Source: Clostridia bacterium
GTDB taxonomy: Bacteria; Bacillota; Clostridia; TANB77; CAG-508
Assembly: GCA_022792135.1 (NCBI GenBank)
Contig: JAAWAM010000016.1
Span: forward strand, 32,385-96,384
Direction: 5' to 3'
DNA length: 64,000 nucleotides
This document shows, piece by piece, positions 44,530 through 55,919 of the stretch. The notes below the pieces were generated by a model. That model had not been told where the DNA came from, made no database searches, and was given only the letters and a program-made list of their open reading frames with translations. How positions within the stretch are numbered: position 1 is the first letter of the stretch; each line of letters opens with the position of its first letter. A program made the position numbers and the translations under genes.

Positions 44530-44680
44530 ATGAAGCAACAAGTTACACATAGCTTACCTATAACAGGTAAGTTAACCATAGAAGAGCGAAGCGTTGAACT
44601 CGCACACTATATTATAGATTCAAAAGATACGGTAAGAGGAGCAGCAGCAAAATTTGGTATTAGTAAAAGTACAGTACACA
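44530..44680 (+). CDS. spoIIID: spoIIID 5' segment (stage III sporulation protein D, N-terminal 50 codons up to the att core)
   Basis: ATG 44530 after RBS ataggggg; ...IEERSVELAHYIIDSKDTVRGAAAKFGISKSTVH matches B. subtilis SpoIIID IKERTIKIGKYIVETKKTVRVIAKEFGVSKSTVH; reading frame then runs into element DNA. Confidence 0.8.
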
Positions 44681-44802
44681 CAGATGTAACATTAAAGAAC
44701 GGTAAAAGAAATGGACAAGTTATTCCAGAAAGTATTAAAATTAAAGGAGTTTTCTTAAGTACAAAGAATCCTGTTGTGAAGTTGGGATTGGTAATTAAAT
44801 AA

Positions 44803-44853
44803 AAAGAATAAAGTATTTTAAGTAAATGAATTTAAAATACTTTATTTTTATAC
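44803..44853 (+). terminator. hairpin terminator just inside element left end
   Basis: aaagtattttaagtaaatgaatttaaaatacttt + tatttttat. Confidence 0.55.
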
Positions 44854-45070
44854 ACAACAAAACAAAAGTTTTATAAAATAAGACAAATAGTATATAATGC
44901 GAAAAAGGAAGTGATAATTTAGAATTTTCTAATATTATGAAAAAGACTTACAATACACTTTTTTCTAAAATTAATAAAAATTTAAATAATTTGATAGAAT
45001 TAGATATATTAGAAAAGGTAAAAAATGGAAAGTATGTAATATTAATATAACAAAATGATTTTATTATGTG

Positions 45071-45175
45071 GCAAAAATACTTTTAAAATAAATACAAAAA
45101 GTGGCAAATCTAACACGAAAATACATGCAAAAAGTGGCAAAAATGTTGACTATTTTTCAAAATTATGCTAATAAT
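45071..45175 (+). promoter_or_regulatory. three AAGTGGCAAA direct repeats at 30-bp spacing overlapping a ttgact-N17-taataat promoter upstream of the ATPase
   Basis: atGTGGCAAAaatac / aAAGTGGCAAAtct / aAAGTGGCAAAaatg at about 45071, 45101, 45131; -35 ttgact at 45145. Confidence 0.4.
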
Positions 45176-45197
45176 ATATTTAATGGAGGAGATTGAA

Positions 45198-53579: not shown

Positions 53580-53580
53580 A

Positions 53581-54084
53581 ATGGAAATAATTATAGCAAT
53601 TATAGGGACAGTGACTACTATAGTAACTGCAATATTAACAAATTATTTTACTAAAAAGAATCAATTAAAATTTAATGAAAGACAACTAAAAGAAAGATAC
53701 TATTTAGAGTATATTGAAGCAATTAGTAGAAATATCAATAACATTACTCAAAATGATGATGAAACAATTAATGAAAACCATGCATTCAATAGGCTTGTGC
53801 TAATTGGAAGTGAAGATATGATTAATAAATTATATAAGTTTCAAGATTTAAGGATTAGACATTTAAAATATAATGATGTATCAGAATATAACAAAAAATA
53901 TGATATTGCATTAAATGATTTGATAAAAGCAATGAGAAGGGATTTGTATGGTAAGGAAGACAAACAAATGCATAATATATATTTTTTAGGTGGAGTCTTA
54001 AAAGGAGATTATACAAAGGAAAAATATGAAAATCCAGAAGAATTAACAATAGAAGATTTTGAAAAATATATGAAAAATAAATAA
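53581..54084 (+). CDS. hypothetical protein with N-terminal TM helix
   Basis: 167-aa ORF, translationally coupled to previous gene. Confidence 0.35.
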   Translation: MEIIIAIIGTVTTIVTAILTNYFTKKNQLKFNERQLKERYYLEYIEAISRNINNITQNDDETINENHAFNRLVLIGSEDMINKLYKFQDLRIRHLKYNDVSEYNKKYDIALNDLIKAMRRDLYGKEDKQMHNIYFLGGVLKGDYTKEKYENPEELTIEDFEKYMKNK

Positions 54085-54199
54085 TTTTAAAAGACTATTC
54101 TCAAAAAGAGAGTAGTTTTTTCTTGCATTTTTGAAATTGATATGCTAAAATGTAACAGAACGAAAACAAGGATACGGAAAAAAGGAAAGTAGTGATGTT

Positions 54200-55810
54200 A
54201 TGAAAATAGCAGCATATGCAAGAGTATCAACTGAAAAAGAATCACAGGTAGAATCATTTGAAAAACAAATAGAATTTTTCAATGAATTTACGAAAAAGAA
54301 TAATTATGAATTGTATAAGCTATATGCAGATGAAGGAATATCGGGAAAACAAATAAAACACAGAAAACAATTCCAACAGATGATGCAAGATGCAAAAGCC
54401 CAAAAATTCGATAAAGTAGTTGTAAAAGATGTAAGTCGTTTTGCAAGAAATACAGTAGATTTACTTCAAAGCATAAGAGAATTAAAATCTTATGGAATAG
54501 AGGTAGATTTCTTAAACAATGGCGAAATCATGGAAGGTGGATCTGAATTTATATTAACTATTTTAGGAGCAATGGCACAACAAGAAAGTGCCAACATGTC
54601 TAAAAGGGTTAAATTTGGAAAAGACATGACTGCTAAAAAAGGACGAGTTCCTAATATTGTTTTTGGCTATGACAAAATTCCAGATGAAAGATATACTTTA
54701 AAAATAAATGAACAAGAAGCAAAAATTGTAAAAAATATATTTGAAAGCTATGTATATAAAGGAATTGGAACAACAAAAATTGCTTGGGACTTAAATGATA
54801 GAGGAATTAGAACTAAAAAAACAAAATCAAAATGGGTACAAACTTCTATTGTTAGAATGTTAAAAAATCCAATTTACACAGGAAGAGTAACCAATAAAAA
54901 GAGTGAAGTAACAGATTTTATAACAGGAACTAGAAAAGATTTACCAGAAGAAGAATGGATTGTAGTAGAAAAACCAGAAATGAGAATTATATCAGATGAA
55001 TTGTTTAATCGAGCGCAAAATATTCTAGCCCAAAGGTCAAATGAATTTAAATTGAATAACAAAAGAGAAAAAACGGAATATGTATTTAGTACTCTTATCT
55101 ATTGCAAACATTGTGGATACTCATTTAGAAGAATAAGAAGAAAATACACAAAAGATGGAAAAGAATATATAAGATGGGTATGTAGTGGAAGAAACTCAAT
55201 GGGAGTAAATCATTGTCCAAATACAACAGTTATTGATGAACAAGAACTTTTAAATGCGATAAAAGAATATCTAAAAAGCATTATTTCAAACAAAAAGAAT
55301 TTTATGAAAGCAGTAGAAAAAGAGTTTGAAAAGATTACCAAATTAAGAGAAAACAATGAAAGAAATGAAGAAAGCCTTTTGAAAGAAATCGAAAAGGTAA
55401 CAGTCAAAAAGCAAAAATATATGGAAATGTTCCAAAATGAAATAATCAATATACAAGAATTAAAGAAATATACCAATCCATTAAATGAAGATATAGCAAG
55501 ATTGGAGCGAGAGCTAAAACTAATTACATCAGAAATAAAAGAAAAGGATGTACTAGAAAAAGAATTGTCCAAAACAATAAGTACTGTAGACGATATTTTA
55601 AATAACAAAACAATTACAAATGCAATGTTAAAAACAATCATAGATGTAATTGAAGTAGATAGTGATTCTAATGTAGAAGTAAGATTAAAATTACTAAATG
55701 AAATAGGCAGTACACCAACAGTTATAACAAATTTTAATGATATCAATCCGACCGTTACGAAAAGTAACAACAGTACACAAAGATGTTTCCGAAAGGTTAA
55801 AAAAAGTTAA
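54200..55810 (+). CDS. large serine recombinase (SpoIVCA/CisA-like) of the spoIIID intervening element
   Basis: resolvase catalytic domain MKIAAYARVSTEKE (Ser nucleophile), recombinase domain, zinc ribbon CKHCGYSF...WVCSGR...CPN, C-terminal coiled coil; 3' end overlaps attR. Confidence 0.85.
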   Translation: MKIAAYARVSTEKESQVESFEKQIEFFNEFTKKNNYELYKLYADEGISGKQIKHRKQFQQMMQDAKAQKFDKVVVKDVSRFARNTVDLLQSIRELKSYGIEVDFLNNGEIMEGGSEFILTILGAMAQQESANMSKRVKFGKDMTAKKGRVPNIVFGYDKIPDERYTLKINEQEAKIVKNIFESYVYKGIGTTKIAWDLNDRGIRTKKTKSKWVQTSIVRMLKNPIYTGRVTNKKSEVTDFITGTRKDLPEEEWIVVEKPEMRIISDELFNRAQNILAQRSNEFKLNNKREKTEYVFSTLIYCKHCGYSFRRIRRKYTKDGKEYIRWVCSGRNSMGVNHCPNTTVIDEQELLNAIKEYLKSIISNKKNFMKAVEKEFEKITKLRENNERNEESLLKEIEKVTVKKQKYMEMFQNEIINIQELKKYTNPLNEDIARLERELKLITSEIKEKDVLEKELSKTISTVDDILNNKTITNAMLKTIIDVIEVDSDSNVEVRLKLLNEIGSTPTVITNFNDINPTVTKSNNSTQRCFRKVKKS

Positions 55811-55919
55811 TCCAAGTTTGGCAAAACAAGTAAGAATTATTTTAGACGAAAATAAGGCAGAAAGGCACATAAGAGGAGGTATGGCTACTAAAATGAAATA
55901 TAGTCATTTACATGAATAA
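55770..55919 (+). CDS. spoIIID: spoIIID 3' segment (from att core to stop)
   Basis: ...TVHKDVSERLKKVNPSLAKQVRIILDENKAERHIRGGMATKMKYSHLHE* matches B. subtilis SpoIIID ...STVHKDLTERLPEINPDLANEVKEILDYHKSIRHLRGGEATKLKYKK. Confidence 0.8.
   Translation, partial: TVHKDVSERLKKVNPSLAKQVRIILDENKAERHIRGGMATKMKYSHLHE

Follow-up and report, generated by a model that had tools for sequence, protein, structure and literature searches.

A family of integrative elements splitting spoIIID at one codon in uncultured gut Clostridia, with a candidate module for excision during sporulation

The DNA analysed was a stretch of 64,000 nucleotides (nt) from a Clostridia bacterium assembly (GCA_022792135.1, contig JAAWAM010000016.1, positions 32,385 to 96,384), here called the window. 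Coordinates are window positions, and features lie on the + strand unless stated otherwise. In the window, spoIIID, the gene for the earliest transcription factor dedicated to the mother-cell lineage, is split by an insert of 11,099 bp after the codon for His50, inside the recognition helix of the helix-turn-helix (HTH). An earlier note on this DNA had described an 11.1-kb element in spoIIID, with a shared 10-bp core at the junctions and a 536-amino-acid (aa) large serine recombinase (LSR) as its last gene, overlapping the right attachment site (attR). The interruption was confirmed by translation, profile scores and uninterrupted relatives, the core is present at 44671-44680 and at 55770-55779, and the recombinase gene does cross attR.

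Split gene, recombinase family and attachment sites

The 5' half of spoIIID (codons 1-50, ending ...SKSTVH; 44530..44679) starts with the ATG at 44530, downstream of the ribosome-binding site AGGGGG, and translates as MKQQVTHSLPITGKLTIEERSVELAHYIIDSKDTVRGAAAKFGISKSTVH (end, ...DTVRGAAAKFGISKSTVH); it was assigned from this translation and from the PF12116 match of the open reading frame (ORF) that continues into the insert. The 3' half (codons 51-96 and stop codon, 55779..55919) translates as KDVSERLKKVNPSLAKQVRIILDENKAERHIRGGMATKMKYSHLHE and matches PF12116 positions 34-80. Unjoined, each half covers its own section of the PF12116 profile only. The joined 96-aa product scored 122.3 bits with TIGR02844, the NCBIfam equivalog model of SpoIIID (cut-off 111.5), and 130.5 bits with PF12116 (profile positions 3-80 of 82), scores that identify the joined gene as a genuine spoIIID. 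The claims that the halves align with SpoIIID and together give a protein of about 96 aa were thereby upheld; the full-length alignment with B. subtilis SpoIIID that had also been claimed was not, the actual span being residues 16-91 of the joined protein. The 15-residue N-terminal extension left over is common to the closest relatives. When the 64-kb window was scanned, no spoIIID-like sequence was found besides the two halves.

For comparison with related genomes, one genome per species was scanned for SpoIIID relatives, which gave 541 encoding stretches, and the best 80 were examined. All 80 carry an uninterrupted spoIIID and come from metagenome-assembled genomes (MAGs) of uncultured gut Clostridia. 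The closest relative among these best 80 of 541 (locus L004, ~80% nucleotide identity) lacks the insert and is colinear with the joined flanks of the window over 10 kb, straight through the junction. For two other hosts, empty sites in the same gene context were also found in genomes of their own species. The joined flanks of L125 aligned without gaps with the empty site L052 (99.2% over 748 nt), and those of L145 with L031 (98.4% over 1155 nt). The insertion is polymorphic (present or absent) within species.

The LSR gene (54200..55810) encodes a protein with the Pfam domains Resolvase (PF00239, residues 3-149), Recombinase (PF07508, residues 171-279) and Zn_ribbon_recom (PF13408, residues 296-359), the N-terminal motif AAYARVSTE and a match to PHROG 95 (integrase). 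At its 3' end the gene crosses attR and enters spoIIID, which it reads in a different frame. The best NCBIfam matches were CcrB with 176 bits (cut-off 900) and XisF with 142 bits (cut-off 375), scores that point to similarity at family level only. The former label "SpoIVCA-type" was accordingly kept for membership of the LSR family and dropped for anything beyond it. By sequence, the nearest solved full-length LSR structure is SprA of SPbeta (PDB 9dxh, E 2.7e-14).

In the protein database, more than 120 clusters homologous to the LSR were found at 91-97% identity, and in 115 of 120 the C-terminal tail is the spoIIID 3' half read in another frame. These LSR tails vary in length: some continue as ...ST(QRC.RK...) and others end directly after ...ST, with a stop codon that arises where the host codes His as CAT. 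For one of the LSR clusters, 395 blocks of the collection are indexed. Related loci (handles beginning with L) numbered 81, of which 80 came from a metagenome scan with the LSR and one from P0106. Wherever a locus extends beyond the LSR (77 of 77), the spoIIID 3' half begins at K51 and abuts the LSR end; 30 loci also retain the 5' half, ending at H50, with element lengths of 3,832-11,498 bp. The family is very common in uncultured human- and animal-gut Clostridia, at the same spoIIID codon. Its LSRs share 88-97% identity even though the SpoIIID halves of their hosts share 60-90%, which argues that the insertions are recent and were horizontally acquired.

Right junctions outside spoIIID were rare. 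One (L168, 11565-11700) falls in an AT-rich intergenic stretch that precedes a gene for 339 aa and pheS/pheT, and another (L169, 5456-5560) is an attP-like variant. Both may be off-target or secondary sites.

At the left junction, attL holds the core ACAGTACACA (44671..44680), with the deduced crossover CA at 44677-44678 in the His50 codon. The P' arm (CACAGATGTAACATTAAAGAACGGTA, 44679..44704) is conserved at the left boundary of each of the 30 complete elements and repeats the P arm in inverted orientation. The P arm itself (GACCGTTACGAAAAGTAACAACAGTA) and the core at 55770-55779 make up attR (55750..55779), with the crossover CA at 55776-55777. For deduction of the crossover, attL and attR from 30 loci were aligned and host-derived bases were separated from element-derived ones. 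The third base of the Val49 codon is host-like in attL (GTA, GTT or GTG) and always A in attR, and the third base of the His50 codon is always C in attL and host-like in attR (CAC or CAT). The exchange therefore falls within the CA of the His codon. The reconstructed attP, TACCGTTACGAAAAGTAACAACAGTA-CA-CACAGATGTAACATTAAAGAACGGTA, is a 54-bp imperfect palindrome centred on CA, its arms TACCGTT...AACGGTA being symmetric about the crossover, a structure that fits the one expected for an LSR.

Circular forms were present in metagenomes. L164 is a perfect concatemer with a period of 11,935 bp (100% identity over 9.7 kb) and contains exactly the predicted attP; it therefore represents a circular molecule, which carries the LSR gene, the small ORF described below, a relaxase gene of the Mob_Pre type and genes for two large proteins of 716 and 876 aa. 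Five more gut-metagenome contigs (L162, L163 and L165-L167) contain attP junctions.

The window insert has the order attL, 1.9-kb remnant, internal attP-like site, 9.2-kb element with LSR, attR. Its left arm occurs twice as a direct repeat of 135 nt (44671-44805 and 46555-46689, 96% identity), so that the insert is a composite of two elements in tandem, the 1.9-kb remnant and an active-looking 9.2-kb unit. The remnant (44681..46554), the left end of which lies in this repeat, has no recombinase and retains only ~50 nt resembling the LSR 3' end. By comparison of the repeats, the internal attP-like site (46534..46588) consists of a degenerate P arm, a core at 46555-46564 and a P' arm; over 46539-46571 it shares 82% identity with the attR arm at 55754-55786. 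A chance origin of this third core copy at 46555 was rejected, as the copy is embedded in the 135-nt repeat. With this arrangement, only recombination of attL with attR, removing the whole 11.1 kb, would restore spoIIID.

Conserved small gene, control signals and in-frame tail

Besides the LSR gene, only one gene is common to all complete elements. In the window this small ORF (51918..52109) encodes an acidic protein of ~63 aa (pI 5.25), which is a candidate recombination directionality factor in view of its conservation together with the LSR. It was found in 67 of 82 loci and in 30 of 30 complete elements, those of 3.8 kb and 4.7 kb included. The 45 N-terminal residues are nearly invariant and the C-terminus is acidic. 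Searches with the protein gave no match in Pfam, PHROG or NCBIfam and no homology to known directionality factors, and none of its 1052 homologous clusters has a Pfam domain. A low-confidence AlphaFold2 model from a 28-sequence alignment (predicted local distance difference test score, pLDDT, of 66) is essentially one helix; the N-terminus, a beta-like LNITF segment and then a helix, gives at most the impression of a ribbon-helix-helix.

Upstream of the small gene, a terminator scan gave a terminator-like hairpin (51751..51776), and the conserved region that follows contains a sigmaE-like promoter (TACTAA-N15-CATAGTAT, 51875..51903). Immediately 5' of the small ORF, ~45 nt show at least 90% conservation among 37 distinct sequences, and beyond them the sequences diverge. 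In most elements this promoter reads TAATATT or TCATATT, N13-14, AATAGTAT. It resembles the promoter of the host spoIIID gene and is predicted to be of sigmaE type. The host promoter (TTCTAA-N15-AATACAAT, 44467..44495) is kept across the clade as TCATAA or TTCTAA, N14-15, AATACAAT, with AATACAAT at the same position in 80 of 101 distinct spoIIID upstream regions. It was provisionally assigned to sigmaE from the B. subtilis sigmaE consensus and the clostridial one; the small-gene promoter fits the latter as well. Clostridial sigmaE promoters have an ATA-type -35 and, in common with sigmaK promoters, a CATA..T-type -10 (PMC3789822). Over both strands of the 64-kb window, a loose pattern that covers the two promoters has only seven hits, among them the small-ORF and spoIIID upstream regions and one in front of a SpoVD-like gene for a penicillin-binding protein (PBP).

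The LSR gene is insulated by an intrinsic terminator (54089..54121), found by the same kind of scan and marked by compensatory stem changes among related elements. It is followed by a conserved region (54123..54162) with a predicted sigmaA-type promoter with an extended -10 (TTGCAT-N17 ending TGC-TAAAAT) and then a TGTAACAGAACG box. The promoter (54123-54151) is conserved in 49 distinct upstream sequences, many with TTGAAA as -35; the -35 of the window copy matches at three of six positions and was hence unlisted by the promoter scan. The conserved TGTAACAGAACG (54151-54162), directly after the -10, is similar to the C. difficile SpoIIID box KRTAACARK as well as to the motif of the att arms (GTAACA...GAACGG), and may serve recombinase autoregulation or SpoIIID feedback.

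In the integrated state, the reading frame of SpoIIID(1-50) continues into the insert for 40 element-encoded codons and a stop codon (44680..44802). This 40-aa tail is shared by 24 of 31 loci (e.g. L092 4311-4553, L153 6195-6434). The ratio of nonsynonymous to synonymous polymorphism (pN/pS) is 0.33 in frame; the two alternative frames give 0.59 and 1.18. Variation falls mostly on third positions. Conservation is 0.86 along the tail and drops to ~0.55 right past the stop codon. The tail looks like part of a translated product, either the chimera with SpoIIID(1-50) or an attP-spanning ORF of the circle. Profile searches with the tail detected no homology. That it mimics the C-terminal region of SpoIIID was considered and rejected, as the PF12116 alignment of the chimera ends at profile position 51.

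A chimera of this kind is also present at L021, a relative that is otherwise without interruption, where a gene for the SpoIIID N-terminal half plus tail (7860-8105) lies 2 kb upstream of an intact spoIIID (9992-10255). The two share a 118-nt duplication of 98% identity, there is no recombinase between them, and the chimera is a remnant or duplication. At the right end of the window insert, an ATG within the 3'-terminal part of the LSR gene shares the frame of the spoIIID 3' half and opens a 60-aa ORF (55737-55919, MISIRPLRKVTTVHKDV...); the same LSR-internal ATG was seen in L092. In the circular form, the 55737 frame would yield an ORF of ~54 aa across attP that ends in the conserved tail.

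Predicted excision, known systems and alternatives

The control logic to which these parts are most easily compared is that of the C. difficile skin element in sigK. There, the LSR CD1231 is made constitutively from a sigmaA promoter, and the directionality factor CD1234 (72 aa, pI 5.5), transcribed by sigmaE with SpoIIID, confines excision to the mother cell, as was shown experimentally (PMC5025042). Both systems have an LSR-mediated element in a mother-cell sporulation gene, with the LSR at the element end by an att site and a sigmaA-type promoter, here a predicted one, before it. Both also have a small acidic protein with a sigmaE-type promoter, again predicted here; in the window this protein is the candidate factor. 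They differ in the target, here spoIIID, the product of which is needed for expression of CD1234; control here must rest on sigmaE alone. The content here is not prophage-like, the relatives mostly carry relaxases, and the small protein is dissimilar to CD1234.

On this basis, developmental excision in the mother cell by a constitutive LSR and a small directionality factor driven by sigmaE, with restoration of spoIIID, was considered the best explanation and more likely than not. The LSR would be made constantly from its sigmaA-type promoter and would by itself be unable to recombine attL with attR. Activation of sigmaE in the mother cell would switch on transcription of the small acidic-protein gene. 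The small protein, acting as recombination directionality factor, would with the LSR excise the whole composite insert as a circle. An in-frame spoIIID would then stand behind its sigmaE promoter, SpoIIID would be made and the mother-cell programme would go on. The circle would be lost with the mother cell, the forespore and spore would keep the element, and relaxase-bearing relatives would spread horizontally. As its own gene is interrupted, SpoIIID could take no part in the control, and a small-gene promoter that depends on sigmaE only would solve this.

Several points weigh against such a developmental role. The hosts are uncultured MAGs, and a second, intact spoIIID may lie in the source genome outside the 64-kb window. 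The promoters are consensus matches in an AT-rich genome, and in the window the -35 is weak for both the LSR and the small ORF. The part given to the small protein was drawn solely from its conservation, size and charge, and it could instead be a DNA-binding regulator. The circles could be transfer intermediates rather than products of excision in the mother cell. The intactness of both spoIIID halves, considered as evidence of purifying selection, was rejected as such because the insertions look recent; intact halves are therefore no proof of selection for reconstitution.

The main alternative is that the insert is an integrative mobilizable element that merely targets a conserved 40-50-bp stretch of spoIIID and leaves it in vegetative cells, stochastically or linked to transfer. 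Carriers would then be asporogenous or would sporulate after random loss, as in a phase-variation-like switch. This is possible, if rather doubtful. A Mob_Pre relaxase is encoded by 24 of the 30 complete related elements, which favours transfer as their purpose, but the window insert, in which profile scans with Pfam and NCBIfam found no relaxase, still has its LSR, small ORF and both att arms intact; the window copy is best seen as a non-autonomous derivative. Free circles in metagenomes, lacking chromosomal flanks, and rare insertions that may be off-target (e.g. L168 by pheS) would suit a mobile element without developmental ties, yet the targeting of a gene used only in the mother cell is strict (77 of 77), which is a signature of the known developmental elements. 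The LSR promoter is of sigmaA type, as vegetative excision would require, whereas the conserved small gene is insulated by a terminator and has a promoter that resembles that of spoIIID and not a sigmaA promoter. The host genes are much less conserved than the LSR, which implies recent horizontal spread, and this together with the presence/absence polymorphism within species speaks for vegetative movement; the very high prevalence of the family would nevertheless be hard to sustain in spore-transmitted gut anaerobes if sporulation were abolished.

A skin-type defective prophage, that is, a phage remnant kept for its excision module, is very improbable. The PHROG 95 match of the LSR is named "integrase", some cargo falls into PHROG auxiliary-function families, and a prophage-like character is known for skin, vfbin, vrin and yin (PMC4191935, PMC10747680). 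The PHROGs scan of the insert, however, gave only this integrase and auxiliary-type families and no structural, lysis, packaging or replication genes. A scan of IMG/VR with the LSR gave no relative. Among GenBank phages only distant LSRs were found (at most 46% identical, the closest in an unannotated 6.4-kb fecal contig), as among the plasmids of PLSDB (at most 36% identical), and the relatives of the insert carry relaxases and are only 3.8-12 kb long. In view of the missing phage genes, the empty IMG/VR scan and the Mob_Pre relaxases, the label of defective prophages was set aside for the family, which is best described as one of small (3.8-12 kb), integrative and mostly mobilizable elements whose cargo is exchangeable. 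The term "skin-like" in the earlier note thus holds for the principle and fails for the gene content.

The trigger or directionality factor might lie elsewhere than in the small protein, either in the chimera of SpoIIID(1-50) and the 40-aa tail, made from the host sigmaE promoter in the integrated state only, or in a host factor. Expression of the chimera would automatically be mother-cell specific and self-limiting, and the tail is conserved in frame (pN/pS as given above) up to its stop codon. This alternative is nevertheless quite unlikely: the tail is absent or divergent in the L085 group and L160, which keep LSR and small ORF, it has no detectable homology, and at L021 the chimera persists beside an intact spoIIID without any recombinase. 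A related and still doubtful idea, slightly less remote, is "promoter capture". Integration would then do more than disrupt spoIIID, turning it into a gene for a chimera of the SpoIIID N-terminal HTH and a tail under purifying selection. The chimera, expressed from the host sigmaE promoter only in the mother cell and only in the integrated state, would time or trigger excision alone or with the small protein, or act as an alternative early regulator, and TGTAACAGAACG would permit shut-off by the restored SpoIIID or the LSR. If true, the system would be a self-limiting developmental switch carried by a mobilizable element that is common throughout the human gut.

For placement among the known systems, elements excised by LSRs from other sporulation genes were compared. 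Such elements are known in sigK, spoVFB, spoVR, spsM, gerE and yabG (PMC4191935, PMC5595907, PMC10747680, PMC5025042), and cotJC is also a reported host. A skin-like element of 64.7 kb in spoIIID of R. cellulolyticum H10 is listed by Galperin et al. 2022 (bioRxiv 10.1101/2022.02.25.481979, text and Table S3). The list of reported hosts in the earlier note (sigK, spoVFB, spoVR, gerE and spsM) was thus short of yabG, cotJC and spoIIID, and its statement that spoIIID was not among them has to be withdrawn. The R. cellulolyticum element splits the same gene, into fragments of 42 and ~47 codons against 50 and 46 here (where the 15-residue extension is included), so that the insertion site is possibly the same, and it also carries an LSR ("SpoIVCA", Ccel_3111, 511 aa). 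It differs in size (64.7 kb against 3.8-12 kb, a comparison made by the published table only) and in the position of the LSR gene, which is on the opposite strand beside the 5' fragment there and at the 3' end, co-oriented and overlapping attR, here. Galperin et al. 2022 treat it in one sentence and one table row, without analysis of att sites, family or distribution.

In style, the window element is closer to the non-prophage element gin in gerE of B. cereus ATCC 10987 (PMC5595907) than to skin. Like it, gin is small and non-phage, lies in the gene of a small mother-cell HTH regulator and is excised by serine recombinase; unlike it, gin has three recombinase genes and a late regulator as target, and neither a relaxase nor a wide family has been reported for it. 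SPbeta in spsM (SprA-SprB) and the B. subtilis skin element in sigK (SpoIVCA) share with the excision proposed here the logic of an LSR and a small directionality factor (PMC4191935, PMC5499854), the reconstitution of a mother-cell gene and the retention of the element in the spore genome. They are prophages or defective prophages of 48-134 kb, however, and spoIVCA is under the control of sigmaE and SpoIIID, which would be impossible here. Integrative mobilizable elements with serine recombinases are likewise small, have their LSR at one end, occur in a circular attP form and encode a Mob_Pre relaxase; a dedicated target inside a developmental regulator gene sets the present family apart, as does the missing relaxase of the window copy. 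Full-text literature searches gave no account of a small mobilizable, gut-wide spoIIID family, its att sites or its conserved module. As far as these searches reach, the family, the att sites and the conserved module are new, and the principle of the intervening element and spoIIID as a host were already known.

The two studied skin systems need SpoIIID for their own excision (PMC5025042). A split spoIIID would move the checkpoint of DNA rearrangement one step earlier in the cascade, where control must do without SpoIIID. With a single LSR family at the same codon in many uncultured gut species, polymorphic and mobilizable, the window insert is no one-off. If excision is developmental, a horizontally spreading element would gate spore formation, and hence transmission, in an abundant and unstudied part of the gut microbiota. 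The system is of interest because its target heads the mother-cell hierarchy, because it is prevalent in the gut microbiota and because a conserved tail is fused in frame. Its compact LSR, defined attB and attP and candidate directionality factor also make it a potential tool for genome engineering.

Cargo of the insert and neighbouring genes

The remnant contains a gene of the DUF4143/PDC-S01 type (45521..46498; PADLOC PDC-S01, E 1e-102, profile positions 116-431). It lacks the first ~115 profile positions, which would comprise the ATPase part, and is probably a truncated pseudogene.

Library scans of the 9.2-kb unit gave genes for PRiA4_ORF3 (46778-47524), Peptidase_C26/GATase (47934-48587), an NT5C-type nucleotidase (48842-49444) and a HAD/PNKP-like phosphatase (49886-50497), followed by a 401-aa protein with a weak PHROG 2034 match (50494-51699). 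Within 46778..51699, PRiA4_ORF3 is the exception among cargo otherwise absent from the 81 related loci, and the absent cluster (47934-51699) may be a nucleotide-directed or defence-type module. Between the small gene and the LSR gene lie a Schlafen-type gene (52191-53579), the product of which combines SLFN_AlbA_2, HATPase_c_4 and a winged HTH, and a 167-aa ORF (53581-54084). Taken over the whole insert, hardly any of the cargo recurs in the related elements. The G+C content of the insert is ~0.25 and that of the flanks 0.28-0.34.

On its 5' side, spoIIID is preceded by genes for NifS, a ThiF-like protein and a 216-aa membrane protein; on its 3' side lie yabG, a LysM/SipL gene and a yunB-like gene. 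Elsewhere in the window, SpoVD-like class B PBP genes are located at 473-2791 (- strand) and 8140-10128 (+ strand), both slightly under the SpoVD equivalog cut-off. The latter is preceded by a sigmaE-like TCATAA-N14-AATAAAAT (8093-8120) and sits within an mraZ/rsmH-murE-murG cluster of division and cell-wall genes.

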